This document shows, piece after piece, positions 1 through 62,648 of a stretch of DNA of 64,000 nucleotides. This DNA comes from a phage, in the sequence record PZ386976.1, one strand, 5' to 3'. Both the position numbers and the translations under genes were made by a program. The notes beneath the pieces are model-generated. The model searched no databases and was not told the DNA's origin. It saw nothing but the letters and a program-made list of their open reading frames with translations. Positions within the stretch are counted from its first letter, which is position 1. Each line of letters opens with the position of its first letter.

Positions 1-335
1 CATTTTTGAAAACAAAGCTTGTGTAGTTGTGACCATCAACATCCAGCCAAACCGCCTGAACATCCACACCATCAAGATTGTGGTAAAGCTCTTTGATGAA
101 GTGGTCTTTCACAACCTGACTACTAGTTGTTTCCAGCTTAATGTTTGAGATTGCTGAACCTACAGCCATATAACCCATGACACGTTTCTTCTCAGTATGC
201 TTAATCTTACCATCTTTGTAAGCCATAATGAGATTGGAAAGAATCTTCACACCATAATACTTTTCAAGGTGAGTAGGTACACCATAAAAACCTAATGCAA
301 AGTTTTCAGAGTGGATAATGTTTTCACGTTTCATA
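1..335 (-). CDS. hypothetical protein, N-terminal part (ORF runs off the window start)
   Basis: ATG at 333-335 on minus strand, open frame to position 1; not in ORF track because no stop inside window; no recognisable motif. Confidence 0.35.
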
Positions 336-635
336 TTAATCTGCCAGCCTTAAATTAAAATTAACACCAAATTTTTCGCATACCTCCAACATATACTCAA
401 GGGATACATTACCAGTGAGGTGGATTATGTTGGATACACGAGCCTGAGAGATACCACAAATTTTAGCAACTTGCTCTTGAGAAAGACCTCTGGATTTAAT
501 CTCTCTCTTAAAACGATGTGCAACGAAATCTCTCATTTCGTCTACATCCATTGGACAAATATAACTCTCCATTTCAGCCTCTCTGTCAGCCTCCCAATCA
601 TCTTGTGGAGCATAAGGGTCAAAAATCTCATTCAT
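336..635 (-). CDS. putative HTH DNA-binding protein (XRE-like)
   Basis: ORF 336..665; C-terminal helix-turn-helix-like segment LSQEQVAKICGISQARVSNI; start probably internal Met (MNEIF). Confidence 0.45.
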   Translation of the reverse strand: MNEIFDPYAPQDDWEADREAEMESYICPMDVDEMRDFVAHRFKREIKSRGLSQEQVAKICGISQARVSNIIHLTGNVSLEYMLEVCEKFGVNFNLRLAD

Positions 636-840
636 CTTTCTTCTTCCGTTTGCGTGAAGTGTCAATCAATGAATCTATGTTTGTAGCCCGAACCTTTTCA
701 CGTTCATCGTTAAGGTAATCATCAAGAGCCTTTTCAATCTGTGAATCGTCTTGACAGATAACTGTAAAGACTGTAAAGCCGTCTGTATCGTCAATTATCT
801 TACCATAACCGCTTCTGGGATGTAACTTTTTAAGAGCCAT
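628..840 (-). CDS. hypothetical protein
   Basis: 70 aa ORF in leftward gene series, basic C-terminus. Confidence 0.35.
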   Translation of the reverse strand: MALKKLHPRSGYGKIIDDTDGFTVFTVICQDDSQIEKALDDYLNDEREKVRATNIDSLIDTSRKRKKKDE

Positions 841-841
841 A

Positions 842-1225
842 TCAAATACCTGTGCAGCTTCTGTTTTCTAAGAAATATTCAACACCGTACATAGCTTTTT
901 GCATCAAATCTTCTTTAAACTGGATACGATGGTTGAGCATAGCCTGTACATCAATATCATCATGGTGCTTCTCTTTAATATTTGCAGATTGCAGGAAATA
1001 CTCTGCAAGAACACGATATTGATAGTCAGTTACCTTATCAGTCATCTCTGTCAAAGACTCTTCAGAGATTGGTTTAAGTAACTCACCATTAGTTAGAGCA
1101 ACACCTTTTACAATCTGGCAAGTGTCTTCTGGAACACCTGATAAGTCCACATTTGGAAGTTCTGTTGCATTGACTGGTAAATTTATTGCCATGACCATTG
1201 CAGCAGCTAATAAAATCTTTTTCAT
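842..1225 (-). CDS. hypothetical secreted protein
   Basis: N-terminal signal-peptide-like MKKILLAAAMVMAINLPVNA. Confidence 0.5.
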   Translation of the reverse strand: MKKILLAAAMVMAINLPVNATELPNVDLSGVPEDTCQIVKGVALTNGELLKPISEESLTEMTDKVTDYQYRVLAEYFLQSANIKEKHHDDIDVQAMLNHRIQFKEDLMQKAMYGVEYFLENRSCTGI

Positions 1226-1775
1226 AATGACCTCAAAGTTATATTAAATTTTGTATTACATTGAGTATAAAAATAAGCTATAACACCTGACTTGTCAACA
1301 GATTTTATAGCTTATTTGGCAGATTTTTTATAAGGCTACTGCCATCCTTCCATACCAAACCCTACCGAACAGAACCATGCTTTGCCATACTGGACAACAC
1401 CTGACCAGACATCACTTAAAAACCCTTTTCAAAGACTCTTAAGTGATGTAATCGAATTTTAATGTAGCTCCGATTAACTACCCATACCTTGCATTACTTC
1501 ACCAAACCGTACATTACTTCACCAAACCATACATTACCAGACCATGCCACACCTGTCCAAACTCAACCTCATTAAAAGACCCTCTTTAAAGACCTTTTAA
1601 TAAGGTAAGTCTCATTTTTATGTAGTTGAGACTAACTACCCATACTTTACCTTACCATACCAGACCTCACCCCGCCTTACCGCACCAGACAGCACAATGC
1701 AGTACAGTACCTTATTAAAAGACCCTGTTTAAAGACCTTTTAAAAAGGAGCCTCCGAAGAGGCTACCTAGTCAAC

Positions 1776-2216
1776 TTAGAAAGGTTTTCTACGTTGCTTG
1801 TTAATGTTAGCTTTCATAGCAGCTAAGTGGTTTTGCTGTTCAATCAGTCGTGAGCGTTCTTGATGGCTAAGTGCCATAGTGTTCACATTCTCAATAGCTT
1901 GAGTGGCTTGCTTTAAAGCTCGACCAATCTTACCAGACATTTTACGTTTTGCAATAGTTGCTTGATGTTTAGGTTCAACCACACGATAACCAACACCCAT
2001 TGAAGCAACCAGATAAATCTTCTCTTCTTTAAGAAGCTTCTCAATAAACTTCTCAAGTCGGTTTAGACGTGTAAGCGCATAAGCCTTCATTTCATCTTCG
2101 TACTTAACAATGTCACCTTGATAAGTTGGCTTCACAATACCTAAGAAGGTATCCATCTCAGAATGTGATACAGTGTCACCGTAACTAAACTTTGCTGCTA
2201 ATGCTTTTGTATTCAT
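1776..2216 (-). CDS. hypothetical protein
   Basis: 146 aa ORF, no recognised motif. Confidence 0.45.
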   Translation of the reverse strand: MNTKALAAKFSYGDTVSHSEMDTFLGIVKPTYQGDIVKYEDEMKAYALTRLNRLEKFIEKLLKEEKIYLVASMGVGYRVVEPKHQATIAKRKMSGKIGRALKQATQAIENVNTMALSHQERSRLIEQQNHLAAMKANINKQRRKPF

Positions 2217-2218
2217 AA

Positions 2219-2824
<606 letters not shown>

Positions 2825-3225
2825 TTAGTTGATTGTTAAGTTGTTTGTAAAGAACCCTCAACAGAAGACTCTTTAGAAACTTGGTAGATTTTTAACGTGG
2901 CTACTACCATCCACCCATACCTCACATCACCATACCATACCATACCTGACCGGACCTAACCAAACTCCACAGCACCATACATCACATCACACAGCCTTAT
3001 TAAAAGACCCTGTTTAAAGACCCTTTAAAAAGGTAAGTCTCATTTTAATGTAGCTGAGACTAACTACCCATACCAAACAGCACCGCACTATGCCTTACCC
3101 CACCTCACCGAGCCTCGCCCCACATCACTTAAAAACCCTTTTCAAAGACTCTTAAGTGATGTTGGTGAGTACCCGTTGGTTTATGCTGCTCAGTATACTC
3201 ACCAAATTTTCTATGTCAACAACTT

Positions 3226-4329
3226 TTACTCATAATCCCTAATAACTAGGCCAACAGGGAACTGTAAAGACCCCTTACGAGTCATCTTCTGGAACTGAAC
3301 CGTTAAAGGCTTCCCGATAAACTCTTCAGGATGCTCAGCCAGATACTGCTTTTTCTCATGAGTGGTTTTCCATGAGACATCTACAAAGACGTTAGGAAGG
3401 GTCTCTACAACGAACTTGCCATGACCACGTTTATCAGTCTTTACACCAGTCACTTTAAACTCTTCAGTGTGCATCTTCTTATGCTTAATCAAGAAGTATG
3501 AACGGTGACCGCACTCATAGAAAGATTCTTCAGAGATTGAACGGTACATTGCACCTTCAAACTTAGCCTCAACCCACTTATCATGAGCTTCATCAAACTC
3601 TTCCCAAGAATTTACACGGCGAGACTTAATAGGAACAACTTTACAGCCGTCTCTAAAGTCATTTAATGGTGAAGTCTCAATAATATCTCTACGCTCAGGC
3701 CACGTTTTAGTACTGTCACAGATATCATACCAGTAGAACTTAAGTAAGTGTCTGTCAGGATTGTCTTCATTTTTAATCATGGAGACAATATCTTCTAAGT
3801 CCCACCCATGAGCATAAATCTCTCCATCAAATTCATCAACATCTTTGTGGAGCCTTAACATTGCCATAATGTCAGGTATTAGTTCAGTAGGGATTTTGTA
3901 AACAGTATTCTCACGAGAATATGCTGTAAATACACTGCCAATACTTAAGTGCCTTGAAATCCTACAACGTACACCATCAAGCTTCGGTTGAGCATCAGCA
4001 GGGAACTTCAGATACTTTGCATGACTAACCTTTGCAGCATCATGAGCAAGCTGTACACCTACCTTTTCAGTATTCTGTGCAGACTCTTTTGTGTAAGCAT
4101 AACCTTTACGGTCAACTTGCTTTTTATACTTAGCAGCAACTTCAAAGAGAGCTTGCTGTTCAGCGTTACGCTCATTCTTTTTACCGATGTTTTTAGGTTC
4201 TGCTGTATACTCTTCAAACATCATCTTGCCATTTTCTTTACCGTAGGTTGTAATAACTTTGTCACCTACAGCAACACATGACCAAACGTTGAAGGAACCA
4301 TCTTTATTTTGTTTGTATAGAATTGTCAT
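3226..4329 (-). CDS. ATP-dependent DNA ligase
   Basis: ORF 3226..4365; adenylation motif I KLDGVRC (KxDGxR) and downstream ligase-like motifs; start set at internal Met (MTILYK) abutting upstream gene. Confidence 0.7.
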   Translation of the reverse strand: MTILYKQNKDGSFNVWSCVAVGDKVITTYGKENGKMMFEEYTAEPKNIGKKNERNAEQQALFEVAAKYKKQVDRKGYAYTKESAQNTEKVGVQLAHDAAKVSHAKYLKFPADAQPKLDGVRCRISRHLSIGSVFTAYSRENTVYKIPTELIPDIMAMLRLHKDVDEFDGEIYAHGWDLEDIVSMIKNEDNPDRHLLKFYWYDICDSTKTWPERRDIIETSPLNDFRDGCKVVPIKSRRVNSWEEFDEAHDKWVEAKFEGAMYRSISEESFYECGHRSYFLIKHKKMHTEEFKVTGVKTDKRGHGKFVVETLPNVFVDVSWKTTHEKKQYLAEHPEEFIGKPLTVQFQKMTRKGSLQFPVGLVIRDYE

Positions 4330-4330
4330 T

Positions 4331-4522
4331 TTATTCCTCTGAGTGATACCAAGTATTGCAAGCATTACATGCGTAAAGCTCTAAGTCATTTTTATCAGGT
4401 TTATGAAAGCAGTTTGCTCCGCAGTGGCAACGAAACGGCTTTCCACCAACTGTCAGGGTGAAGGATTGAACCTTTCCATCAGGAGTTCGTACAGCATTTT
4501 TATGCTTATCTTCTTTGTTCAT
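4331..4522 (-). CDS. small zinc-ribbon protein
   Basis: 63 aa with CHCGANC...CNACN cysteine pairs. Confidence 0.4.
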   Translation of the reverse strand: MNKEDKHKNAVRTPDGKVQSFTLTVGGKPFRCHCGANCFHKPDKNDLELYACNACNTWYHSEE

Positions 4523-4725
4523 TTTCTCTTACCACCAATCTCTACGTCAATCACTTGAACATCACCAGCAACATCAAACTTATGAATGATGCTTTCCACA
4601 GTGTAAGTCCAACTATCAATGCGAACTAACTCACCTTCTCGTGGGACGATTGGATTACGTTGAGCTACAGTTGTAGTGGAGTGAACAACATCATAACAAT
4701 AGATATAGTTTACTAATACTTCCAT
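4519..4725 (-). CDS. hypothetical protein
   Basis: ORF 4519..4824 trimmed to internal Met to avoid overlap with lipoprotein gene. Confidence 0.3.
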   Translation of the reverse strand: MEVLVNYIYCYDVVHSTTTVAQRNPIVPREGELVRIDSWTYTVESIIHKFDVAGDVQVIDVEIGGKRK

Positions 4726-4735
4726 CGTGAAAACC

Positions 4736-4993
4736 TCACTCAATAACCGTGGTATGTGATTGACCATTTTTGCCATAGCTATAAGATGTTGTTGTTTGAG
4801 AGTTTGGACATCTGACAACAACAATATCCCTGCTTATAGCGTCACCATTGAGTTTGTAGATTTTGCAGTCTTGCATCTCTGGAGGTAGGCTGTAAGAAGC
4901 ATCTTTGTTTTCATAAGAAGGGTTGCAGCCAGCCAGAAAAATTACTCCAAGTGCAACCATTACTTTCACACAACTCTTAATCTTATTGTTCAC
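4736..4993 (-). CDS. putative lipoprotein
   Basis: signal peptide plus lipobox LAGC near N-terminus. Confidence 0.5.
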   Translation of the reverse strand: MNNKIKSCVKVMVALGVIFLAGCNPSYENKDASYSLPPEMQDCKIYKLNGDAISRDIVVVRCPNSQTTTSYSYGKNGQSHTTVIE

Positions 4994-5125
4994 GATAGTC
5001 TACCTCTCTGTATGTTTTTAAATAGTGGGTGATGAGTTCTGGTAATTCACTACGTTTAACGTTTGAACGAAGAAGTGTCCAGTCAAAACCTTTACCAACC
5101 CTTCCCCAGAGACTGTACATTTTCT

Positions 5126-5359
5126 TCATAGCAACTCCAGAATATCAATACGTTCACCCTTAAGAACACCTGTACGGTCTCTTGCAATCTTACCATCAAC
5201 GATAAGGATATGCGCGACCTTTAAAGCCTCACCATTAAAACCTTTTACGAACTTGCTAGGCATCACTACAATGGACATCTCCTGAATCAACTCTGGAGTA
5301 TAGCAATTGTCGTGAAGTTGCTGAATAACGTCTGCAAGTGTCATTTTTGATGTCTCCAA
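5126..5359 (-). CDS. hypothetical protein
   Basis: 77 aa ORF. Confidence 0.35.
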   Translation of the reverse strand: METSKMTLADVIQQLHDNCYTPELIQEMSIVVMPSKFVKGFNGEALKVAHILIVDGKIARDRTGVLKGERIDILELL

Positions 5360-5611: not shown

Positions 5612-6168
5612 TCAGTGTACTTCAAGCCAATTCTTACCAACTTTACCAGTACCAGTTACAAGCGTTTCCTCCTTAAGCCCTAAGTTTCTTGATGCCTGAC
5701 CATACATCCAGTCAATCACTGCTTTAACATCCTGTGTCATCTCTTCTGGGCACTCCCAACTATTCTCATCGTGGTATGCTAAAAGCAATCTAGCACCAAT
5801 AGCTGGTTTTCGACCATTCAGCTTTGTAAGACCCTCTTCACAAGTCCTTCTACAAGCAAGGTTGATGGCTTCATTCTGAACCTGACTTTCCGAACCCATG
5901 AGCAAGTAATTTAAAAGTTTGTGCGGAGATTTACACCACAACCATGCACCTGCTACCTTTACAAAACCACCCTTAGATATTGCAGCAGTCTTACCAAACA
6001 CCTCTTCAAGAGCCTTCTTAGTGGCTTTGAAGTCTGCTTCTAAATTATCTATCAACTTCTTAATTTTAGGGAGGCGTACAAAGTATGTTTGCTTAGTTAA
6101 AGCACCTTCCTCAGTTGTAGATGCTTTAATCGTCTTAGCAAATTTCTCATCGCCAGCCCCGAACAATA
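5612..6168 (-). CDS. DNA polymerase (family A, T7-like), 3' exon
   Basis: begins ...LFGAGDEKF (second half of motif B YGxxYG) and contains motif-C-like AYHDE; in-frame continuation of upstream exon if an 805 nt intron is removed. Confidence 0.7.
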
Positions 6169-6973
6169 CATCTGGTCAATACACTCGCAAGGTGTACCAG
6201 TTCTCTTATGAACTTCTCCGCATTTCTACGGAGTGTCGGACTATATCACGTAGTAGTAGTAATACTACCGTTGCACTTGGGAATGGTCATTAGCTTACCA
6301 CCCTACTCTACTCAGTTCATACGTTAAGTATGCTTTTCGATAGTCTCTGAACGTTTCTCTGTTAGGAATCTCTATAGTTATGTTATTTGCTTAGGTAGTC
6401 AATTGCCCTTTGCATATTATCAATGCTATCTGCAAGTAACCCCAAAGCTCTATTGCAATTGTGGCACAACATGCCTCTTACTTTTCCGGTTTTGTGGTCA
6501 TGGTCAACGACAAGTTTAGCCTTATGCCGTGAACTATTCATGATAAAACCTTCACCGCCACAAATTTGACATTTGTAATCACAGTTACGAAGTAGGGTCT
6601 CAACCTCTTCTCTTTCTAAACCATATGTTCTCAGGTAGTAATTCTTAACTCTACCTTTCTCTCCACAATGCGAAGAACAATAAACTTGCCTTGCTGTTCT
6701 AGGCATGAACACCTTCTCACAGCTAGGACATTTCTTAGTAAGAACCCTATATTCTGCTCTTCTGTCAAATTTTAATACGCAACTTCTGCACCGTTTTTGA
6801 TTGTATTGGTACGGTTTAAACTCCGTGCCACACTCAGTGCATAATCTCTCTTCGTAACCTGCCATTGTCTCTCTCCTTTGTTTTAGGAGTCCTAACAGAG
6901 ACTTCGCTGCTGATTACCATATCTTTACAGACTTAGGCTTCCAGCAATTCACAACGTTTTACATGCGCCACTG
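6169..6973 (-). mobile_element. putative group I intron interrupting the DNA polymerase gene, carrying an HNH endonuclease ORF
   Basis: polymerase frame breaks inside motif B; exon 1 ends in U and intervening segment ends in G (minus strand); joining restores ...AKNGIYALLFGAGDEKF, which resembles the T7 motif B region. Confidence 0.5.
6383..6865 (-). CDS. HNH homing endonuclease (intron-encoded)
   Basis: Cys-rich zinc-binding N-terminus and HNH motif VDHDHKTGKVRGMLCHNCNRALG. Confidence 0.65.
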   Translation of the reverse strand: MAGYEERLCTECGTEFKPYQYNQKRCRSCVLKFDRRAEYRVLTKKCPSCEKVFMPRTARQVYCSSHCGEKGRVKNYYLRTYGLEREEVETLLRNCDYKCQICGGEGFIMNSSRHKAKLVVDHDHKTGKVRGMLCHNCNRALGLLADSIDNMQRAIDYLSK

Positions 6974-9146
6974 ACGCATAAATGCCATTTTTGGCTTTCT
7001 TACGGCCTTTACTAATTTCCTGAAGAAGATTTGTATCCTGAGTGGCTCGACAGGTCAAGATATCTTCCTCTTTATTAAGGCTGAAGTAGATGCTATTTAA
7101 AGTATGCGCATCAGTTCCTGAGTACACCACGTACAAGTCATTTTCCGAATCATAATGCAAATACTTGTCAATCTCTGGGTTTAGATACTGGTCAAAATGT
7201 TTGCAATAGTATCTGCCATCCTCTTGTTTGACAAACTCAACCTCTTCTTTACCCTCTGTCACTGCTTTAGTGAACTCCTTATCACCCATAAAGTTGCACA
7301 GCAGCACAAGTTGGGCACTATTCATATCTGCTGAAACAATATTAGTTCCTTCCTCACAAGTCCACACCTCCCTCATAGGCGCTCCATAGACAGCAGCACC
7401 AGACGGTACGTTTACAATACCATATTGTGTCATACGTCCAGTTGAAGTACCAAACACCATTGCACCAGCACTAAGGCGACCATCAGGACGAATCTGGTTA
7501 AGCCAACCTTTTTCATCATCCTTTGAGTTCTCAATAGTTCTGCGTCGGTGCATCAAAGTGTAGTATTTCGCAATCTTCTGTCCAAGCTCACCTTCAATCG
7601 TATCATAAGATGATTCAGTAAGTTTTGGTGAAGTACGGATTAAGCAAGGTTCAAGCAAATCTGTGTATTTCTTCACAGACCAGTTATGCTCAATGTACTG
7701 TACACCTTCATGTTCAACATAACTCAAACCACACCGCTCAACCATTTCCTGCCACTTAGGATGTTTTGTAATCATCTTTTTATTGTCTTTGAAACGACAA
7801 ACTTTGACAGGGCGACCATCTGAGTCTTTCTTGTAGTTCCAGTCATCTGGAATCCAACCAACTGATTTCAAGTAGTCTTTAACAACTGCTACCTGAGTCA
7901 TACGAGAAACTTCAAACTCAATTGGTGTATATGGTGCATCAATCAAACCTGTGTAGCGACTTGACTCAAGTTCAAAGTGGTTAACAACGTGGCTGTTATA
8001 GTACTTCACAGTTTTGACTGTTTTTACTGGCTTCCAGTCTTTGCACTTCTTACCAATCTTTGCATTCAACTCATTGCAAATTGCACGAGCATCCTTCATT
8101 GCTACAAAACCTTCCTTGTACTCTTCACCAGTTACAGTGTTGGTTGGTGTATAGCAATTCCTTTTTTCAATGTTAAAAATCTTTGTAGTTGGCTTACCAA
8201 ATGGTTTGATTTCATATGTTTGCATCTCACCGTTACGCACCTGCTGACGATACTTTGTCTTAGGGTACTTGGTAATTCTCTTCAGTCCATCTGCATGACC
8301 AAATGTTTCAACATACTCATTCCAAGCTTTTGCAAACTCTTCTCCAGTGACTTTACCTTTGGTCTTAATAGTTGGAGGTAGATGCGGTTCAACCTCTGAA
8401 GCAAGCTCATTAGTCAATTTGTCAAGTTCCTTCACATGGAACTCCATAAGCTCTTTATCAGCTTTCCAGCCATTAATAGCTTGTTGACTCATCCAGAAAG
8501 ATGTCTCTTTAGCTCGCATGTAAGTCTCATAAGTGTCTATACCACACTTCTTAAGCTTGAGATACTCGTTATCAAGTGCCCGTTTAGTTTTGGCGTTAAT
8601 ACGGATATCTTCTACAACACGAGTGAAGATTTCTGCATTCCACACACCCCAATGTTCAATCTCTGGTTTACGGACACCAACACGAGCACCCCATGCAGCC
8701 AAACCATGAGCACCTTTATAACCCTTTGGAGTTGGTCTATCCATCCACTGAACACGAGACTGGATAAGAGAATCCTGAAAGAAATTACTCCACGGCTTAC
8801 ATTTTGGATTATCAAAGTTCCATAAATCCGGTGCAATGTGATTGAAGACCCACCAGTCATAACCGAGGCCGTTATGGATACAAAGTCGTTTTGCCTTTAA
8901 CGCAAACTCAACACCTTCACGTAAACCACCCTTGATGTACTTAGTGTACTTGTGACCGAGGATAGGCTCATCTGTAAAGACCCATACAGGTGGCTCTTCA
9001 TCGTCAGATTTATAGTCTGCAAAAGCCATTACGTGAACTTTAGTGAACTCAAGGAGTAAACCATCAGTCTCTGTATCACCAACTAAATGTAAGTTTTTAA
9101 AATCTACGTTTTCCATTTTTACTCCCTCTAAAATCATTAACCTCAT
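6974..9146 (-). CDS. DNA polymerase (family A, T7-like), 5' exon with 3'-5' exonuclease domain
   Basis: Exo motif DTETDGL, T7-like FNHIAPD/AWG region, motif A SADMNSAQLVLL, start of motif B RKKAKNGIY; ORF then diverges into intron sequence. Confidence 0.8.
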
Positions 9147-22785: not shown

Positions 22786-23982
22786 ATGAACAAAGTACAG
22801 ATTATTAAAAAGAATGGCTCACTCGAAGAACCTGATATCAAAAAAGTTTTAGCAGCAGTCACAAAGTCAGCTAATAGGGTTGGGTATAAAGAACTCCCAC
22901 CAGATGTTACTCAAGCTCTTGAGTCAGCATTTATGAGGATTCTGGTAAAGTCCACTAAGCAGAATAATTTGCTAATTTCTGTAAACGATATTCACAGTAT
23001 TGTTGAGGGTGCTTTGGCAGAAGTCAATCACGAAATTTATGAGTCTTACTCAACATACAGAAATTACCGTAAAGAAGTTGCTCAAAATTGGGATGAACTC
23101 TACCAGAAGACCAAAGATACACTCTTCTTAGGTGACAGAGAGAATGCTAACTTTGACAGCAGTTTAATTTCTACAAAAGGCTCAATTATTCGTGGTTACC
23201 TGACTAAAGAAATCTTTAAACAGTACCATTTAACACCAGAGGAACTTGAAGCCATTGAAAAAGGGTTTATCTATATCCATGATTTAAGAGACCTAATTTT
23301 TGGTGGTATCAACTGTTGCCTGTTTGACATTGGTAAAGTCCTGAAAGGTGGCTTTGAAATGTCTGGCATCGAATATTGTGAACCAAAGTCTGTGCTGTCG
23401 GCCTTACAGGTTATTGGTGACGTAGTTCTTTCAGCAACTGCACAGCAATTTGGTGGCTTTACTTTAGCAGAGATTGATAAGGTACTCGTACCGTATGCTA
23501 AGAAGTCTCTACGCTATCATGCTGAGAAAGCAGCATCTTATGGTATTCCTAAAGAACATTACCACAATTATATCATGGAGCAGCTACAGATTGAACTGAC
23601 TCAAGGTTTCCAGTCACTTGAAATGAAACTCAATACTGTGCCTTGTAGCCGTGGGGATTTTGCATTTACAACTTTGACATTCGGGTTACTTGATTCAGAT
23701 ATGTCTAATGAAGATAACCGACTGCAATACATGATTGCAAGTACTCTCCTAGATGTTCGTATGAATGGACAAGGTAAGAGCAAGAAGCCTGTTGTATTCC
23801 CTAAACTGGTTTATATTTATGACCAGAAGAGACACGATGAGAATATCTGTCAAGGACACCTGTACAGTAAAGCCATTGAGTGTTGCTCTAAAGCAATGTA
23901 TCCAGATTTCTTAAGTGTATCTGGTCATGGTGCTGTAGCAGAGGCTTTTGAGCGTTCTGGTAAGGTTATTTCACCGATGGGT
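22786..23982 (+). CDS. nrdD: anaerobic ribonucleotide reductase, 5' exon
   Basis: ORF ends ...VISPMG then stop; continues in frame at 24725 as CRAFLSPYL... (reconstitutes a PMGCR motif). Confidence 0.75.
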
Positions 23983-24724
23983 TAACAAGCTCTATAGCTC
24001 ATCTAAAACGTGCCTAAACAGGGAAACTCTACAGATGTAGACAATCCTGTGCTAAATGATGTACGATGTAAGAAACTATACAACATAGGAGTCTTACATG
24101 CCAAACTATCACGTCACTGAAGATGGAAAAGTCTTTAGGGAAAATGGTGTAGAGCTTACGCAGTGGAAATCCAACACTGGGTATATGAAAGTGAGGTTTT
24201 ACGGTAAGAAGAATCGTGACATGTATGTCCACAGGTTAGTTGCTGAGAAATATGTACCTAACCCGAATAATCTTCCAATTGTAAAACATAAGGACGATAA
24301 CAAACTAAATAACCACGCATCTAACTTAGAATGGGGTACTCATTCTGAGAATGCTAAAGAAGGTTATGAGAACGGTTGCTACAAGTTCCACAAGCGTTCA
24401 TATGCCGTGAAAGCCACACACAAAGTGACAAGGGAAGTTATTGTTACTAAGTCAATACGAGAGTTATCCAATATACTTGGACACAATCGCAAGACCATCT
24501 CTTCAATATTGAAGGGTGTAAAAGAGCATAATAACTTCGAATATGAGTTTGAATACATCTAAATGCCGAACGACTAACCGTGATGAATGTAGCGGTGTAG
24601 GGTCAAGCGACTCGAAATGGTACGCTACTTAGAAATAAGTAGAAGATATAGTCTGGACTTACTGGCGACAGTAAGCAGCTTGAATAAAGCGGGGTAAGCT
24701 TAGCGAACTTACCTGAACAACAAG
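23983..24724 (+). mobile_element. putative group I intron in nrdD carrying an HNH endonuclease ORF
   Basis: 5' exon ends with T, stop codon immediately after splice site, intron ends with G; G/C-rich structured 3' region 24565-24724. Confidence 0.55.
24098..24562 (+). CDS. HNH homing endonuclease (intron-encoded)
   Basis: 154 aa ORF with His/Asn-rich HNH-like core (HKDDNKLNNHASNLEWGTHSEN). Confidence 0.6.
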   Translation: MPNYHVTEDGKVFRENGVELTQWKSNTGYMKVRFYGKKNRDMYVHRLVAEKYVPNPNNLPIVKHKDDNKLNNHASNLEWGTHSENAKEGYENGCYKFHKRSYAVKATHKVTREVIVTKSIRELSNILGHNRKTISSILKGVKEHNNFEYEFEYI

Positions 24725-25672
24725 TGTAGAGCATTTTTATCACCATATCTTAACGAGAATGGGGAAGAGTTCTATGTAGGTCGTGCTAACATTGGTGCTG
24801 TGTCTTTGAACTTACCAATGATTTACCAGTATTCTAAAGAGAATGAATTAGATTTCTGGAAAGAGCTTGATAAGTACCTAGAAATGATTCGCAGCTTCCA
24901 CAAGAAACGTTACGAAATGATTGCTAATATGCCAGCAAGTTCTAACCCTCTTGCGTTCACACAAGGTGGTCTGTACAAAGGGAATAAGAAACCTACTGAC
25001 AGGGTTGGCTGGGATATCGTGAAGTCCTTCACAGCTTCTTTTGGGGTTACTGCGCTTGATGAGCTATCTGTTCTTGCTGAAGGTAAACGACTTCATGAAG
25101 TTGGAAGCTGTAGTTTTGCATACGATGTTCTGGAATACATCAACATGAAAACTGAAGAGTTTAAAAATGAAGATGGCTTCTTATATGCCGTCTATGGTAC
25201 TCCAGCAGAATCACTTTGTGGAACTCAGCTAAAACAGTTCAGAGATATGTTTGGCGTTATCAAAGGTGTTTCTGATAAGGAATACTTTACAAACAGCTTC
25301 CATATGAATGTTGCAGCAGACATTACACCATTTGAGAAGCAGGACTTAGAAGAACCCTTCTTCCATATCTGTAGAGGCGGTAGAATCCAGTATGTAAGAG
25401 TGGCTAATCCAGAAAACTTATCAGCACTTAAGAGTTGTATTACGAGAGGTATGTTGAAAGGTTTCTATCAGGGACTGAACTTTGACTTAGCAATCTGTGA
25501 ACATTGCGGTAACAGACCAAAGGCTGATGTTGAAGAATGTGAGGTTTGTCATTCACATGATATCTCTGTGATTAACAGGGTGTGCGGGTATCTCGGGTGG
25601 ACTAAGATTAAAGGCGAATCCCGAATGAATGATGCAAAAATCGCTGAGATTCGTGACAGAGTTTCTATGTAA
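24725..25672 (+). CDS. nrdD: anaerobic ribonucleotide reductase, 3' exon
   Basis: C-terminal Cys cluster and glycyl-radical motif RVCGYLG. Confidence 0.75.
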   Translation, partial: CRAFLSPYLNENGEEFYVGRANIGAVSLNLPMIYQYSKENELDFWKELDKYLEMIRSFHKKRYEMIANMPASSNPLAFTQGGLYKGNKKPTDRVGWDIVKSFTASFGVTALDELSVLAEGKRLHEVGSCSFAYDVLEYINMKTEEFKNEDGFLYAVYGTPAESLCGTQLKQFRDMFGVIKGVSDKEYFTNSFHMNVAADITPFEKQDLEEPFFHICRGGRIQYVRVANPENLSALKSCITRGMLKGFYQGLNFDLAICEHCGNRPKADVEECEVCHSHDISVINRVCGYLGWTKIKGESRMNDAKIAEIRDRVSM

Positions 25673-25826
25673 AACTTGACAAGGTGATGTGAGTCTTGAT
25701 AGGCTTACATCACCTTTTTTATTGGATGTTAGATATGGCAGAGAACATCATTGGCCTATTCATAGGTTCTGTCTTACTAGGGTTCTTTTTAGGACTCTCT
25801 TATTGTGAATTAAGAGGCAAGTTAAA

Positions 25827-58222: not shown

Positions 58223-58299
58223 CTCTGTTTAGCTCAGCTTGGTAGAGCGTTCCGTTTGGGGCGGTAAGGCCGGAGGTTCAAGTCCTCCAACAGAGACCA
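58223..58299 (+). tRNA. tRNA-Pro: tRNA-Pro (anticodon TGG)
   Basis: manual cloverleaf: acceptor ctctgtt/aacagag, anticodon loop ttTGGgg, T-arm ggagg-ttcaagt-cctcc, CCA encoded. Confidence 0.6.
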
Positions 58300-58316
58300 A
58301 ATTTAAAGGGGTTACT

Positions 58317-58673
58317 ATGAGATTTTTAAAAGAATGTCCAGTTCATGGTTTAACTGAACATAGCATTCATAAGAATGGTAACGCCGGTAATAGAGTAAAT
58401 TGTCTAAAATGTTGTGCATTAAGGACAAAACTTAGAGAGGATGCCAATAGGGAGAAAGCATACAAGTTTTATGGCGATAGTTGCAAAATTTGTGGCTATA
58501 ATAAATGTAAAAATGCTTTAGAATGGCATCACCTTAACCCAAACGAAAAAGAGAATACACCATCAAAAATTATGGGTGCATCTTGGGAAAAGGTTAAAAA
58601 AGAACTTGATAAATGTGTTTTGCTCTGTGCTAATTGCCACAGAGAGGTTCATAGTGGAATTACAACGGTTTAA
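58317..58673 (+). CDS. HNH homing endonuclease within tRNA cluster
   Basis: Cys-rich zinc-binding elements and HNH motif EWHHLNP...LLCANCHREVH; ORF 58239.. trimmed to MRFLKE because upstream part overlaps tRNA-Pro. Confidence 0.6.
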   Translation: MRFLKECPVHGLTEHSIHKNGNAGNRVNCLKCCALRTKLREDANREKAYKFYGDSCKICGYNKCKNALEWHHLNPNEKENTPSKIMGASWEKVKKELDKCVLLCANCHREVHSGITTV

Positions 58674-58674
58674 T

Positions 58675-58749
58675 GTCGTAGAAGGCAAATGGTTAGCCAC
58701 CTGACCTTCAATCAGTTGCTCGCAGGTTCGAATCCTGTCTACGACACCA
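58675..58749 (+). tRNA. tRNA, anticodon tentative (TTC, Glu?)
   Basis: acceptor gtcgtag/ctacgac, T-arm gcagg-ttcgaat-cctgt, CCA encoded; anticodon loop ccTTCaa has atypical C33. Confidence 0.45.
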
Positions 58750-58753
58750 GTTT

Positions 58754-58832
58754 TGACAGAAGACCAATTACAGCAAACTTAATCTTATTCATCTGAAGGT
58801 AAATCGGACAAAGAAGAGATTTGGTCTGGTCA
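58754..58832 (+). ncRNA. conserved bulged-helix module 1 (outer stem tgac/gtca, 5' AGA bulge, inner stem agaccaa/ttggtct, 3' G bulge)
   Basis: one of four copies with covarying outer stems; encloses AT-rich loop. Confidence 0.35.
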
Positions 58833-58840
58833 TTAAGAAT

Positions 58841-58917
58841 TGCGGGTATAGAGAAAGGGCGTCTCACATGTCTCATTAGCATGGTATCGGCAGGTTCGAC
58901 TCCTGCACCCGCCTCCA
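58841..58917 (+). tRNA. tRNA-Met/Ile2 (anticodon CAT), initiator-like unpaired 1:72
   Basis: acceptor (t)gcgggt/acccgc(c), anticodon loop ctCATta, T-arm gcagg-ttcgact-cctgc, CCA encoded. Confidence 0.5.
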
Positions 58918-58920
58918 ATT

Positions 58921-58986
58921 TTGCAGAAGACCGTATTCAGCAACAAACTACTTTTTGCGGATAAAAGAAAAAACACGGTCTGGCAA
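58921..58986 (+). ncRNA. conserved bulged-helix module 2 (outer ttgc/gcaa, inner agaccgt/acggtct)
   Basis: same architecture as module 1 with compensatory base changes. Confidence 0.35.
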
Positions 58987-58994
58987 TGTATTAA

Positions 58995-59071
58995 GGTTAG
59001 GAAGCACATAAGGTATGTGCGGTCGCCTGTTAAGCGAATGGCACAGGGTTCGAATCCCTGACTAACCGCCA
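58995..59071 (+). tRNA. tRNA-Asn: tRNA-Asn (anticodon GTT)
   Basis: acceptor ggttagg/actaacc, D-arm gcac-ataaggtat-gtgc, anticodon arm gtcgc-ctGTTaa-gcgaa, T-arm caggg-ttcgaat-ccctg, CCA. Confidence 0.7.
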
Positions 59072-59140
59072 AATTTAGGAGAGAAGCGATTGCTCACCGA
59101 TTTGTAAGGTGCAAGTCCTTAGCCTGAATAGAAATTAAAT

Positions 59141-59228
59141 GTGTCGTTATCCCGTAGATGGTAGCGGTGGGGACTGTAAATCCCTTGTCATTGAGACTCG
59201 GTAGGTTCGACTCCTACACGGCACACCA
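59141..59228 (+). tRNA. tRNA-Tyr: tRNA-Tyr (anticodon GTA), long variable arm
   Basis: acceptor gtgtcgt/acggcac, anticodon arm gggga-ctGTAaa-tccct, long variable arm, T-arm gtagg-ttcgact-cctac, CCA. Confidence 0.65.
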
Positions 59229-59233
59229 ATAAA

Positions 59234-59311
59234 GGTTATGTAGTTTAATTTGGTTAAAATACTCCCCTGTCACGGGAGATGATGAGGGTTCAAATCCCTT
59301 CGTAACCGCCA
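59234..59311 (+). tRNA. tRNA-Asp: tRNA-Asp (anticodon GTC)
   Basis: acceptor ggttatg/cgtaacc, anticodon arm ctccc-ctGTCac-gggag, T-arm gaggg-ttcaaat-ccctt, CCA. Confidence 0.7.
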
Positions 59312-59369
59312 ATTTTGAGAGGGCTATTTAGCCCCTCCCTTAAAGGGTTCTTACGAGTATCCTTTAAAG

Positions 59370-59451
59370 GAGCAGAAGACCAAATACAGCAAGAACGTAT
59401 GAAAATTTCAAGCCAATTTAATTTTGAAAAATTTAAAACTTGGTCTGGCTC
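59370..59451 (+). ncRNA. conserved bulged-helix module 3 (outer gagc/gctc, inner agaccaa/ttggtct)
   Basis: same architecture, compensatory outer-stem change. Confidence 0.35.
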
Positions 59452-59458
59452 AACAAAT

Positions 59459-59595
59459 TTACAGAAGACCGTTTACAGCAAAACTTAAACAATCTATTTC
59501 TCGGTAAAGAAAAGGCGAAGGTTCGATTCCTTCACTCGGCAGATGTCGAGTTGGTGTAATGGTAGCACTTAAGATGATAAACAACGGTCTGGTAA
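59459..59595 (+). ncRNA. conserved bulged-helix module 4 enclosing a circularly permuted tRNA-like domain; candidate Y-RNA-like RNA
   Basis: outer ttac/gtaa, inner agaccgt/acggtct; enclosed 59517-59568 has T-arm gaagg-ttcgatt-ccttc, 7-bp hairpin actcggc-agat-gtcgagt (acceptor-like) and D-arm-like gtg-taatggtag-cac in permuted order. Confidence 0.35.
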
Positions 59596-59736
59596 TTATC
59601 TTTGTAGATAAGTTATTAAGCTTACCTGTGAGTATGCGACCACAAAGGGTGAAAGGGTAAATTCTAGATTTAAACCCAAAAAGGCACATCGCTACAGACC
59701 TTAAGCAAGTCTGGGTAGCTTATCTACAAAGATAAT
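59595..59736 (+). ncRNA. long hairpin with perfect 18-bp stem enclosing ~106 nt
   Basis: attatctttgtagataag (59595-59612) is the exact reverse complement of cttatctacaaagataat (59719-59736); no ORF. Confidence 0.3.
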
Positions 59737-59741
59737 TTAAT

Positions 59742-59817
59742 GGAAGTGTAGCAGAATGGTGATGCGGCAGACTTTTAATCTGACAGGCGATGGGTTCGAA
59801 TCCCTCCACTTCTACCA
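59742..59817 (+). tRNA. tRNA-Lys: tRNA-Lys (anticodon TTT)
   Basis: acceptor ggaagtg/cacttct, D-arm gca-gaatggtga-tgc, anticodon loop ctTTTaa, T-loop ttcgaat, CCA. Confidence 0.6.
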
Positions 59818-59821
59818 AAAT

Positions 59822-59898
59822 GGTTCAGTCGCAGATAAGGTAATTCAAGGGTCTCATAAGACCTATGAATGTGGGTTCGATTCCCATCTGAACCTCCA
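59822..59898 (+). tRNA. tRNA-Met/Ile2 (anticodon CAT), tentative
   Basis: acceptor ggttcag/ctgaacc perfect, anticodon loop ctCATaa, T-arm gtggg-ttcgatt-cccat, CCA; D-arm irregular. Confidence 0.45.
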
Positions 59899-59900
59899 AT

Positions 59901-59975
59901 TGTGGGTTAGCATAAATGGTAATGCAAACGGCTGATAACCGTTAGAAGAGGGTTCGATACCCTCACCTACAACCA
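59901..59975 (+). tRNA. tRNA-Ile: tRNA-Ile (anticodon GAT)
   Basis: acceptor tgtgggt/acctaca, D-arm gcat-aaatggta-atgc, anticodon arm aacgg-ctGATaa-ccgtt, T-arm gaggg-ttcgata-ccctc, CCA. Confidence 0.7.
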
Positions 59976-59990
59976 ATTTCAATAAAGTTG

Positions 59991-60019
59991 TTGACATTGA
60001 GATGTGACTACTTTATAGT
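59991..60019 (+). promoter_or_regulatory. sigma70-like promoter inside tRNA cluster
   Basis: TTGACA, 17 nt, TATAGT; followed by ~200 nt ORF-free region before next tRNA. Confidence 0.5.
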
Positions 60020-60222
60020 AACCTTAGTTTTCGTTGCGTAGCGTCTATTTTGCAAATTTAAAATAAATGCAAACGACAATGTTTTTCTGGCAGTAGCTTG
60101 ATAGGCTAAACACCAGTGAGGTCTTCCAATCCCTCATCAAAGAATTTGGCGTACTAGCCCACGGTATGATTAATAAGGTGGGCATCTTTAAGTGCTTTCT
60201 GAGAGAGTCTTTAAAGATTAAT

Positions 60223-60299
60223 GCACCCTTAGTTCAATTGGATAGAGCAACGGTCTTCTAAATCGTTAGTTACAGGTTCGAATCCTGTAGGGTGTACCA
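60223..60299 (+). tRNA. tRNA-Arg: tRNA-Arg (anticodon TCT)
   Basis: acceptor gcaccct/agggtgt, D-arm gttc-aattggata-gagc, anticodon arm acggt-ctTCTaa-atcgt, T-arm acagg-ttcgaat-cctgt, CCA. Confidence 0.7.
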
Positions 60300-60441
60300 A
60301 ATAGTTAGCAGATTGCTTAGACGACCTTATCGGGTCTCCGTGTAAGGAGGTGGTCTGTATCTCATGTTTTCCAGAACATGTAAATAATCTGAGAAGGGGC
60401 TTTACAGTGTTGCGAAAATACGGTAAGCTTCGAATTATAGT

Positions 60442-60524
60442 ATGGGACGATGTTAAGACTCTAAGGCATGAGCAACGGCCTCCAAAACCGTTTCAAAGGG
60501 GTTCAACTCCTCCGTCCCATGCCA
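60442..60524 (+). tRNA. tRNA-like gene with oversized D region (possible anticodon CCA, Trp?)
   Basis: acceptor atgggac/gtcccat perfect, T-arm agggg-ttcaact-cctcc, CCA; candidate anticodon loop ctCCAaa; D region ~7 nt too long. Confidence 0.35.
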
Positions 60525-60537
60525 AAGTCTTATTAGG

Positions 60538-60625
60538 GGTAGGTAGCGGCTAATGGCAGCCAAACAGTCTTGAAAACTGTTGCCACTGTAGAGATACGGT
60601 GAGGGTTCGACTCCTTTACTTACCG
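60538..60625 (+). tRNA. tRNA-Ser: tRNA-Ser (anticodon TGA), long variable arm
   Basis: acceptor ggtaggt/acttacc, anticodon arm acagt-ctTGAaa-actgt perfect, long variable arm, T-loop ttcgact. Confidence 0.6.
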
Positions 60626-60882
60626 CCTAATAAGATTTAAAGCCAAGCTTCATTCGGATGTTGCTTTGGTATCCCTCGTGTATTGTCGTACACACTGATA
60701 AAGCACCTAGTAGGTGTCACGGAGAAGAGATAATATCAAGCTCTCCAAAGGTTCTAGTCACCGGATTAAACAAGGCTATGCAAAGACCTGTTTAGGTCTT
60801 TTTAGAGGGCTTCTAAGGTTATTACAGCTTGTTGTGGAACCTTGTTGCTTAGGTTCTTAGAAGTTCTCTAAAAAGATTTAAT

Positions 60883-60960
60883 GGGAGATTGACGGTAATT
60901 GGTAAACCTACCATCCTTAGAAGTTGGTGTTTGAGGGTTCGAATCCCTTGTCTCCTACCA
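60883..60960 (+). tRNA. tRNA, anticodon tentative (TAG, Leu?) with short variable arm
   Basis: acceptor gggagat/gtctcct, anticodon arm ccatc-ctTAGaa-gttgg, T-arm gaggg-ttcgaat-ccctt, discriminator A, CCA. Confidence 0.45.
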
Positions 60961-60967
60961 AATTAAT

Positions 60968-61043
60968 GCAGGTGTAGCAAAATGGTTATGCGGCTGACTC
61001 TTAATCAGTAAGACGATGGGTTCAATTCCCTCCACCTGTACCA
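60968..61043 (+). tRNA. tRNA-Lys: tRNA-Lys (anticodon CTT)
   Basis: paralog of Lys-TTT gene; anticodon arm gctga-ctCTTaa-tcagt, T-loop ttcaatt, CCA. Confidence 0.55.
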
Positions 61044-61049
61044 AATATT

Positions 61050-61125
61050 GGGGTCATAGTTTATATGGTTAAAATTCGAGTTTTGCAAACTTGGGAACTG
61101 AGTTCAATTCTCAGTGACTCCACCA
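61050..61125 (+). tRNA. tRNA-Ala: tRNA-Ala (anticodon TGC)
   Basis: acceptor ggggtca/tgactcc, anticodon arm cgagt-ttTGCaa-acttg, T-arm ctgag-ttcaatt-ctcag, CCA. Confidence 0.6.
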
Positions 61126-61131
61126 ATTAGT

Positions 61132-61206
61132 GCATCCATAGTTTAAACGGGAAAATTACAGTCTTCCAAACTGAGGTTGAGGGTTCGATTCCCTCTGGAT
61201 GCTCCA
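61132..61206 (+). tRNA. tRNA-Gly: tRNA-Gly (anticodon TCC)
   Basis: acceptor gcatcca/tggatgc perfect, anticodon loop ctTCCaa, T-arm gaggg-ttcgatt-ccctc, CCA. Confidence 0.6.
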
Positions 61207-61212
61207 AACAAT

Positions 61213-61289
61213 GCTGCTTTCGTATAATTGGCTATTACACATCCCTTGTAAGGATGGAAATGCAGGTTCGAGTCCTGTGAGCAGCACCA
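61213..61289 (+). tRNA. tRNA-Thr: tRNA-Thr (anticodon TGT)
   Basis: acceptor gctgctt/gagcagc, anticodon arm catcc-ctTGTaa-ggatg perfect, T-arm gcagg-ttcgagt-cctgt, CCA. Confidence 0.7.
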
Positions 61290-61380
61290 ATTCAGAGGTC
61301 AAGTGAAAGACCGCTGGTGTCAACTGAAGACCGTAACAAATTCCACGGAGTTGAGTTAGCGGCACAACTTCAGACCTCTT
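61290..61380 (+). ncRNA. structured element with terminal inverted repeat and a variant of the conserved gaagaccgt box
   Basis: cagaggtc pairs with gacctct ~70 nt downstream; contains ctgaagaccgtaacaaa. Confidence 0.25.
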
Positions 61381-61384
61381 TCAT

Positions 61385-61459
61385 ACTCGCTTAGTTTATA
61401 TGGTAAAACATCACCCTTACAAGATGAAGAAGAAGGTTCAAGTCCTTTAGTGAGTACCA
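61385..61459 (+). tRNA. tRNA-Val: tRNA-Val (anticodon TAC), tentative
   Basis: acceptor actcgct/agtgagt, anticodon arm tcacc-ctTACaa-gatga (one mismatch), T-arm gaagg-ttcaagt-ccttt, CCA. Confidence 0.5.
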
Positions 61460-61460
61460 T

Positions 61461-61538
61461 GTTCCAGTATCCCAATTGGCAGAGGATGCAAGCTCAAACC
61501 TTGTACTAGTGACGGTTCGAATCCGTCTTGGAACACCA
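61461..61538 (+). tRNA. tRNA-Leu: tRNA-Leu (anticodon CAA) with short variable arm
   Basis: acceptor gttccag/ttggaac, D-arm tcc-caattggcaga-gga, anticodon arm gcaag-ctCAAac-cttgt, T-arm gacgg-ttcgaat-ccgtc, discriminator A, CCA. Confidence 0.5.
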
Positions 61539-61543
61539 ATTTT

Positions 61544-61619
61544 GCAGGATTAGTTCAAATGGATAGAGCAACAGTCTACGAAGCTGTTAATAGGGGTTCG
61601 AATCCCTTATCCTGCACCA
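61544..61619 (+). tRNA. tRNA-Arg: tRNA-Arg (anticodon ACG)
   Basis: acceptor gcaggat/atcctgc perfect, D-arm gttc-aaatggata-gagc, anticodon arm acagt-ctACGaa-gctgt, T-loop ttcgaat, CCA. Confidence 0.65.
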
Positions 61620-61638
61620 ATTTAAAGAGGCTATTTAA

Positions 61639-62196: not shown

Positions 62197-62204
62197 AGAT
62201 TTAA

Positions 62205-62280
62205 AGGGGATTAGTTTACAAGGTTGAAACCTCGGTCTTTGAAATCGAAGAAGTTGGTTCAATTCCAACATCCCCCGCCA
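62205..62280 (+). tRNA. tRNA-Gln: tRNA-Gln (anticodon TTG)
   Basis: acceptor (a)ggggat/atccccc with unpaired 1:72, D-arm gttt-acaaggttg-aaac, anticodon arm tcggt-ctTTGaa-atcga, T-arm gttgg-ttcaatt-ccaac, CCA. Confidence 0.55.
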
Positions 62281-62282
62281 AT

Positions 62283-62361
62283 GCTCCATTACTCCAATTG
62301 GCAGAGAGGCCAGACTTAAAATCTGTGTTATGTATCGGTTCGAATCCGATATGGAGTACCA
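62283..62361 (+). tRNA. tRNA-Leu: tRNA-Leu (anticodon TAA) with short variable arm
   Basis: acceptor gctccat/atggagt, D-arm ctc-caattggcaga-gag, anticodon arm ccaga-ctTAAaa-tctgt, T-arm atcgg-ttcgaat-ccgat, discriminator A, CCA. Confidence 0.5.
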
Positions 62362-62366
62362 AATTT

Positions 62367-62442: not shown

Positions 62443-62473
62443 CTTCTAAGGATTCTTACGAGAGTCCTTAAAT

Positions 62474-62549: not shown

Positions 62550-62554
62550 ATTTA

Positions 62555-62631: not shown

Positions 62632-62648
62632 ATTTCAAAGGTGCTTAA

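Follow-up and report, generated by a model that had tools for sequence, protein, structure and literature searches.

How does a phage make NrdD from a gene whose reading frame stops immediately before the codon of the catalytic cysteine and resumes 742 nt downstream? The question is raised by a Felix O1-like phage (Felixounavirus) of which a 64,000-nt stretch of DNA, here called the window, was analyzed (sequence record PZ386976.1; all coordinates are window positions). The nrdD region of this phage is 95 to 97% identical to those of Salmonella phages FSL SP-010/SP-012, VSe11, Mushroom, and Meda and of many E. coli phages, and the local gene order is nrdB, glutaredoxin, a small membrane protein, the interrupted nrdD, three small ORFs, and nrdG. 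From its sequence and its relatives, we consider the insert very likely to be a td-type group I intron that is mobile and splices itself out, placed in the active-site motif PMG|CR of nrdD after the Gly codon and before the codon for Cys.

Position of the insert within nrdD

The gene and the elements next to it are laid out as follows:

22786..23982, + strand: nrdD exon 1, encoding the ATP-cone and the N-terminal half of the NrdD catalytic domain and ending ...KVISPMG
24098..24562, + strand: ORF within the insert, 154 amino acids, of the I-HmuI type of HNH endonucleases, with an N-terminal HNH_3 catalytic domain and a C-terminal DNA-binding part
24725..25672, + strand: nrdD exon 2, with the catalytic Cys codon first (CRAFLSPYL...) and the glycyl-radical domain included
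25681..25716, + strand: terminator-like hairpin followed by a T-run, 3' of nrdD

An in-frame TAA at 23983 to 23985 closes the exon 1 ORF (22786..23985), and exon 2 opens with TGT AGA GCA TTT TTA TCA CCA TAT CTT (CRAFLSPYL), its frame staying open to the stop codon at 25670 to 25672. In Pfam searches, exon 1 falls on positions 1 to 250 of the NRDD profile, plus the ATP-cone, and exon 2 on positions 264 to 560, plus Gly_radical. The two exons add up to 2145 nt, the length of the uninterrupted nrdD in phage dune (L002), which reads ...CCGATGGGT|TGTAGAGC... across the junction, and when the terminal 300 nt of exon 1 were joined to the initial 300 nt of exon 2 to give a 600-nt query, many Felixounaviruses proved to have it in one piece. 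Reading frames and dune junction thus agree with the initial annotation, in which the nrdD frame stops after SPMG and resumes at 24725 with CRAFLSPYL to rebuild PMGCR, and the comparison with intron-less homologs that it had proposed finds a contiguous gene with exactly the predicted junction. The only ambiguity at the junction is a 1-nt slide (T/T), and the insert is placed at exactly 23983..24724 because only that choice ends the intron in G. A spliced mRNA is predicted to read ...CCGAUGGGU|UGUAGAGC... at this point.

The conceptually spliced NrdD of 714 amino acids aligns without gaps through the ...PMGCRSFL... segment of the solved NrdD 9d3x, and T4 NrdD has an uninterrupted SPMGCRSFL motif. 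We take the Cys that opens exon 2 to correspond to T4 NrdD C290 (an estimated position), presumably the thiyl-radical cysteine. Between the dune gene and the spliced window gene there are 86 nucleotide differences but only 10 amino acid differences over ~714 residues, indicating that both nrdD exons are under purifying selection.

Might the gene be interrupted at the protein level instead? Ribonucleotide reductases often contain inteins, which are likewise directed at active-site motifs (PMC3653736). Here, the junction is immediately followed by a stop codon, nrdD and the ORF are read in different frames [(24098 − 22786) mod 3 = 1], and Pfam finds HNH_3 but no intein domain, so that an intein or other protein-level intervening sequence can be dismissed.

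Another reading takes the database records at face value: an HNH gene split nrdD, nothing is spliced, and two NrdD fragments assemble into an active enzyme. Most GenBank records do show two nrdD coding sequences on either side of an HNH gene. Citing a 2013 description by Moreno Switt et al. of homing endonuclease genes inside conserved genes of these phages (PMC3728262), the UAB_Phi87 paper speaks of a "split nrdD" that a homing endonuclease interrupts and does not use the term intron (PMC4837284). The split of nrdA by mobE in Aeromonas phage Aeh1 provides a precedent (PMC3653736). However, the first in-frame start codon of exon 2 is its codon 26 (GTG at 24800), and therefore a separately translated exon 2 fragment would be without the catalytic Cys. 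Together with the RNA structure, guide sequence, and ORF-less alleles described below, this makes an unspliced gene in two pieces extremely unlikely.

Group I intron structure of the insert

Covariance-model scores and comparison with other introns support the view that the nrdD insert belongs to the group I introns of the T4 td type and carries an HNH homing-endonuclease ORF. The intron and its helices are as follows:

23983..24724, + strand: td-like group I intron of the IA type with P7.1/P7.2 and no P2, 742 nt, opening with UAA and ending with G24724 (omega-G)
24009..24014, + strand: 5' strand of P3, CGUGCC, with partner GGUACG at 24619-24624, 100% paired
24018..24050, + strand: P4 (24018-24023/24045-24050) around P5 (24028-24030/24039-24041), with covariation and a partial Rfam match
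24051..24064, + strand: P6 (GC at 24051-52, partner at 24565-66) and the 5' strand of P6a (24058-24064, partner at 24553-24559), the ORF being looped out of P6a
24572..24653, + strand: 3' half of the core, with P7 (24572-76/24649-53), P7.1 (24577-81/24592-96), P7.2 (24600-04/24609-13), the 3' strand of P3 (24619-24), P8 (24625-30/24637-42), and the conserved GAAGAUAUAGUCU motif
24658..24714, + strand: peripheral 3' helices P9 (24658-64/24669-75), P9.1 (24678-81/24687-90), and P9.2 (24692-98/24708-14)

At the gathering threshold, an Rfam scan of the whole window returned 24 tRNAs only and missed the ORF-containing intron. A permissive scan placed Intron_gpI (RF00028) at 24495-24675 with 33.1 bits (E = 1.7e-6), below the gathering score of 50, in a match that takes in the conserved GAAGAUAUAGUCU/P9 segment, and gave a weak match to P3-P6 at 24018-24101. 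A natural ORF-less allele (L001) of 316 nt, which in its retained parts shows 100% identity to the window, reaches 55.1 bits (E = 2.1e-13), with the extra sequence falling in the P6 loop of that model. The window copy scores below the threshold because a 465-nt ORF sits in P6a; hence, the covariance-model search proposed in the initial annotation reaches the RF00028 threshold with the ORF-less allele (55.1 versus 50) and stays under it with the ORF-containing copy (33.1).

Homologous introns with HNH ORFs interrupt nrdD at the identical codon boundary in Vequintavirus navn (...TSMG|CRSFLS...) and in Vibrio phage F98 (...SYMG|CRSLLS...), the HNH proteins being 48% and 40% identical to that of the window, respectively. 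These two introns were aligned with the window copy, the td intron of RB10/T4, and introns from a pair of Aeromonas phage genes that includes terL, giving a covariation set of six from which the ORF loops were trimmed beforehand. A hit in a Pseudomonas phiKZ-like phage (L011) was left out since its 5' half is too different, as was one labeled "Campylobacter phage" (L010), which duplicates the Vequintavirus intron. Without any input structure, RNAalifold recovered P1, P3, P4, P5, P6, P6a, P7.1, P7.2, P8, P9, P9.1, and P9.2 from the six introns, with compensatory double changes in 40 of 71 pairs. When the P7 pseudoknot is added, standard pairs occupy 95.9% of the cells, versus 37 to 41% in controls whose 3' partners were slid by 1 to 3 columns, and changes on both sides are found in 38 of 70 pairs, versus 5 to 11 in the slid controls; no shuffle out of 500 matched any of the observed pairing measures. 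By compensatory pairs, the most informative helices are P3 (5/6), P6a (7/7), and P8 (5/6). P7 is invariant across the set, which fits the structure and carries no covariation signal. An ORF flanked by a complete, covariation-supported group I core is not what an unspliced HNH insertion would predict.

In its 3' 160 nt, the intron shares ~71% identity with the 3' core of the td intron of T4. This segment had been described as G/C-rich and structured: the G+C content is indeed raised, if modestly (45.1% versus 38.9% for the window, within the top ~5% of 162-nt windows), and the structure is borne out by covariation and weakly by thermodynamics, a single-sequence fold of the 3' 162 nt giving the same helices with an unremarkable z of −1.83. 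Two features of subgroup IA are present, namely, P7.1 and P7.2 between P7 and P3' and the homology to td. The exact subgroup would be IA2, an assignment that rests on the td homology, the T4 td intron being a member of IA2.

A further reading is that of a decayed or splicing-defective intron. On that account, splicing has been lost and nrdD is a pseudogene, tolerated thanks to the aerobic enzyme NrdAB. NrdD is dispensable in aerobic growth, contrary to the initial annotation, which had called nrdD essential; nrdB lies just upstream in the window, and the ORF-containing copy falls under the Rfam threshold. Yet the window copy has all of its core helices intact, the exons are open and evolve under the purifying selection seen against the intron-less dune gene, the intron sequence is 92 to 100% conserved across ~94 records, and the low score is due to the ORF in P6a, the ORF-less allele passing. 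We therefore regard loss of splicing as very unlikely.

Elsewhere in the window, a minus-strand DNA polymerase gene is split around an Endonuclease_7 ORF (His-Me/HNH superfamily), and partial Intron_gpI matches occur at this split gene. The existence of a second HNH-bearing intron in the phage, stated as a fact in the initial annotation, is plausible on these grounds. The minus strand also has 9-mers resembling the core near 10083 and 13009; they lie within ordinary ORFs, give no Rfam signal, and are chance occurrences.

Splice-site pairing by the guide sequence

Two short segments are involved in the recognition of the splice sites:

23976..23982, + strand: 5' strand of P1, GAUGGGU, the last 7 nt of exon 1, found by explicit pairing and also by RNAalifold
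23989..24003, + strand: internal guide sequence, of which GCUCUAUA (23989-23996) pairs with exon 2 (P10) and GCUCAUC (23997-24003) with exon 1 (P1)

P1 consists of 7 bp and is closed by a U23982.G23997 wobble at the 5' splice site, and P10 of 8 bp formed with the first 8 nt of exon 2, UGUAGAGC (24725-24732), contiguous with P1. The splice-site nucleotides follow the rules for group I introns, as had been claimed, with the last U of exon 1 in the U.G wobble of P1 and a terminal intron G (G24724). Since the MAFFT alignment left P10 out of register, this helix was checked by explicit pairing. Where the window has TGT AGA G at the Cys-Arg codons, Vibrio phage F98 has TGC CGA T, and the F98 guide AUUGGCA|GCUCAUGU, facing UGCCGAU in its own exon 2, again pairs perfectly, compensatory changes preserving both P1 and P10; guide and exon combinations swapped between the window and F98 are mispaired. 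This compensatory change in P10 provides independent support for both splice sites, and a guide that fits both exon ends again argues against an nrdD split without splicing.

The intron-encoded HNH endonuclease

HNH_3 is found at residues 43 to 86 of the intron ORF (Pfam, E = 1.3e-10), and the ORF is assigned to PHROG 59 (phrog_59), annotated as HNH endonuclease. Compared with I-HmuI (PDB 1u3e), it aligns over its full length, residues 3 to 152 matching 12 to 169 (E = 4.7e-9), and as we read this alignment, the HNH motif is conserved at its H, N, and N residues (vkHkddNklNNhasNLeWgThseN versus vdHkdgNkdNNlstNLrWvTqkiN). All 10 ORF-bearing alleles checked (the window, Meda, and eight IMG/VR loci) encode the intact protein of 154 amino acids. 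The ORF product is predicted to be an active nicking endonuclease.

The coding sequence extends into the ribozyme, as the 3' strand of P6a consists of the last ORF codons and the ORF stop lies within the P6/P6a internal loop. Upstream of the ORF is a Shine-Dalgarno sequence, AGGAG, at 24087-24091, near which one further feature was noted:

24066..24099, + strand: possible, weak hairpin (24066-24073/24092-24099) holding AGGAG and the first two bases of the start codon

With −9.8 kcal/mol and a z of −1.71, this hairpin is not significant, 17 of 200 shuffles folding equally well; by a weak analogy with td/I-TevI, it might sequester the ribosome-binding site of the ORF. Sigma-70 promoters are not enriched in and around the intron (6 sites versus 8.0 expected), and therefore no promoter of its own can be claimed for the HNH gene.

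Allele classes and linkage to exon 2 markers

A Felixounavirus-type junction region is present in ~244 phage records, of which 94 have the intron and 61 the ORF. Three allele classes can be defined: intron-less (~150), intron without ORF (~33), and intron with ORF (~61), all counts including RefSeq/GenBank duplicates. In the ORF-less form, 426 nt (about 24106-24531) have been deleted in frame; the deletion shows 2 nt of microhomology and leaves a mini-ORF of 12 codons, MPNNFEYEFEYI. The same deletion was seen in all three ORF-less alleles examined in sequence (L001, L038, and L041), and the 316-nt span recurs in the remaining ORF-less records. What these alleles keep is a ribozyme of 316 nt, more than the scar that a lost HNH gene would leave in an unspliced nrdD.

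Does the presence of the intron leave a trace in the exons? Marker linkage was analyzed in GenBank loci together with 46 loci from IMG/VR. Exon 2 opens with TGT AGA GC(A/G) TTT TTA TCA in all 13 intron-bearing alleles, and the 13 close intron-less alleles have TGC/TGT ... TTC ... TC(C/T) there, so that positions +3, +12, and +18 are fixed in 13/13 intron-bearing versus 0 to 3 of 13 close intron-less alleles. These and several more exon 2 positions up to +54 are associated with the intron (P = 1.9e-7 to 1.6e-3), whereas none of 150 exon 1 positions is. The linked markers are synonymous, and position +3 is also required for P10 pairing. Exon 2 of the window itself is patchy, being of the intron type at +1..+18 and +51/+54 and of the intron-less type at +24..+48.

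Linkage confined to exon 2 is what would be expected from co-conversion after a break on the exon 2 side, and the pattern is in this respect consistent with homing; shared ancestry of the intron-bearing alleles may be part of the cause. I-HmuI-type enzymes place their nick on the template strand of exon 2, and the bias of the linked markers fits such a nick (PMC3428280). Judged from these alleles, the polymorphic nrdD intron is apparently mobile.

A model for splicing and homing

Based on the conserved core and the pairing of both splice sites, we infer that the nrdD intron is spliced. GAUGGGU at the 5' exon end would pair with the guide sequence to form P1 with its U.G wobble, and an exogenous guanosine held in P7 would attack the 5' splice site. 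The adjoining part of the guide would position exon 2 through P10, the exons would be ligated after G24724, and ligation would restore an mRNA for the 714-amino-acid NrdD. An in-frame stop at the start of an intron is held by reviews to aid ribozyme folding by halting ribosomes (PMC3984707), and we propose that the core can fold here because the UAA that opens the intron halts ribosomes at the splice site. The prediction for the 154-amino-acid HNH enzyme is that, close to the insertion site and probably on its exon 2 side, it nicks the intron-less nrdD of co-infecting phages; repair would then transfer the intron to the recipient along with a short piece of exon 2 (homing).

A broader scenario can be drawn, which we offer tentatively and think more apt to be wrong than right. 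One intron/HNH lineage might follow the codons of the NrdD thiyl-radical Cys in unrelated groups of phages (Felixounavirus, Vequintavirus, and ~138-kb Vibrio phages), its guide being readapted to each exon. The Felixounavirus nickase would act on exon 2, giving short, asymmetric co-conversion, and the synonymous TGC/TTC/TCY variants found in intron-less alleles would serve as markers of cleavage resistance or of incompatibility. The element might then be a weapon between co-infecting phages (marker exclusion), not a neutral parasite. The intron endonuclease of PhiPA3 is reported to have recently been shown to act as a weapon in the competition of co-infecting phages.

What do these findings mean for other genomes? 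The two "nrdD" fragments and the "HNH endonuclease" in dozens of Felixounavirus records should be annotated as one spliced gene, and ORF-containing introns escape a default Rfam scan. The locus is a further case in which homing elements target the DNA that encodes active sites, the most conserved part of phage genes for nucleotide metabolism. Its three-state polymorphism (empty, ORF-less, and full) with linked exon 2 markers would make it handy for work on the homing cycle and on co-conversion driven by a nickase, the phages concerned being E. coli and Salmonella phages that are easy to grow.

Comparison with known systems

The nrdD intron is already recognized at the annotation level and is of a textbook kind, not a new kind of system. 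For Felix O1 itself, the paper describing the genome had listed no introns (PMC3185647). In the record of Salmonella phage Meda, the nrdD coding sequence is a two-piece join with an internal HNH gene, and the Meda announcement mentions the nrdD interruption and "another intron" in DNA polymerase, without structural, comparative, or experimental analysis of the nrdD intron (PMC6486253). In the literature searched, no structural or experimental study of the Felixounavirus nrdD intron was found. The Meda intron (MH586731) is essentially the same element as that of the window, with 95.6% identity over the gene.

Like the window gene, nrdA-a/nrdA-b of Aeromonas phage Aeh1 is a ribonucleotide reductase gene split by an HNH gene (PMC3653736). 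The Aeh1 gene has no intron, and its fragments assemble posttranslationally, whereas the window has a complete ribozyme and an exon 2 without its own start.

The T4 nrdD (sunY) intron with I-TevII shares the host gene and is likewise a phage group I intron encoding a homing endonuclease, but its enzyme belongs to the GIY-YIG family, not to HNH. An identical insertion site was considered and rejected, as the T4 intron follows ...DAFQAYE, ~110 codons upstream of SPMGCR. As to the enzyme, the closest parallels are the DNA polymerase introns of SPO1, SP82, and Bastille (I-HmuI, I-HmuII, plus I-BasI, all nicking HNH enzymes), the window ORF being a full-length homolog of I-HmuI; these introns differ in host gene (DNA polymerase) and reside in other phages, while the window element is found in Gram-negative myoviruses.

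As to the RNA, the T4 td intron with I-TevI is homologous, with shared helices including P7.1/P7.2 and an ORF looped out of P6a, and both introns have UAA right after the 5' splice site in a GGGU|UAA context. The td intron differs in its host gene (thymidylate synthase versus nrdD), in its endonuclease (GIY-YIG I-TevI versus HNH), and in having a P2 hairpin, where the nrdD intron of the window has only 5 nt between P1 and P3.

The split DNA polymerase gene

Like nrdD, the family-A DNA polymerase gene lies in pieces, on the minus strand of the window (5612-9146):

9146..6933, minus strand, DNA polymerase exon-1 ORF
6865..6383, minus strand, 160-aa Endonuclease_7 ORF (PF02945, E=4.5e-20)
6166..5612, minus strand, exon-2-like ORF, matching the C-terminal part of DNA_pol_A

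Rfam places two partial Intron_gpI matches in this region, one at 6946-6856 (24.6 bits, E=0.0014), covering P4-P6, and a second at 6549-6216 (17.9 bits). The initial annotation counted the nrdD intron as the second intron-like element of this phage, and the split polymerase region is probably its first. An ORF-less intron has been reported in the polymerase gene of Salmonella phage Meda (PMC6486253).

Variant alleles and records of the nrdD intron

An ORF-less nrdD intron in Salmonella phage vB_SAg-RPN213 (OL800606, 61376-61667) is shorter (~292 nt) and more divergent (89.6% identity), possibly representing an allele that has degraded further or arisen independently. Intron position 6, which lies just upstream of the guide-sequence segment that forms P10, is variable, reading TAACAAGCTCTA in the window (23983-23996) versus TAACAGGCTCTA at loci L032, L033, L039, and L040. 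Exon-2 position +9 is A or G among alleles with the intron, and no pairing between these two positions is evident.

Several GenBank records labeled "Campylobacter phage A126/A13b/A142..." (MG065668, MG065677, MG065662, etc.) and flagged UNVERIFIED carry nrdD intron sequences of Felixounavirus or Vequintavirus at 98-99% identity, MG065677 being classified under Vequintavirus. These records are likely mislabeled or contaminant assemblies.

In two unrelated phages, nrdD is broken up and annotated as 4 to 5 pieces:

L004 (Vibrio phage F98, OZ195766), 50-4184, nrdD region; 827-1756, 309-aa HNH ORF within it
L007 (Escherichia phage navn, MN850642), 951-5319, nrdD region; 4218-5150, 310-aa ORF without annotation within it

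The two ORFs listed are examples: nrdD in these phages has taken up multiple endonuclease-type ORFs, which suggests several introns or homing elements within a single gene.

td-like introns in further phages

Two Aeromonas phages carry closely related, ORF-less introns of the td-like kind in genes other than nrdD:

L009 (phage 2L372X), 394-693, in the terminase large subunit gene
L008 (phage phiA047), 2413-2686, between two "hypothetical protein" CDSs

The terminase frame is restored across the intron at GGGT/...AAAAG/TACAA (slashes mark intron ends), and the two phiA047 CDSs probably represent one gene. In the phiKZ-like Pseudomonas phage PaZh_1 (L011, ~1050-1350), a coding region is broken directly after ...KGMG (ATGGGT/) by a td-like 3' intron core, which reads GAAGATATAGTCTG...; its P9, CTGCATGGTGACATGCAG, is identical to td P9. 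The 5' half of this intron appears to differ considerably from the td type.

tRNA array

The window also holds an array of 24 tRNA genes (58223-63553, plus strand), all above the Rfam tRNA threshold; such arrays are typical of Felix O1-like phages.
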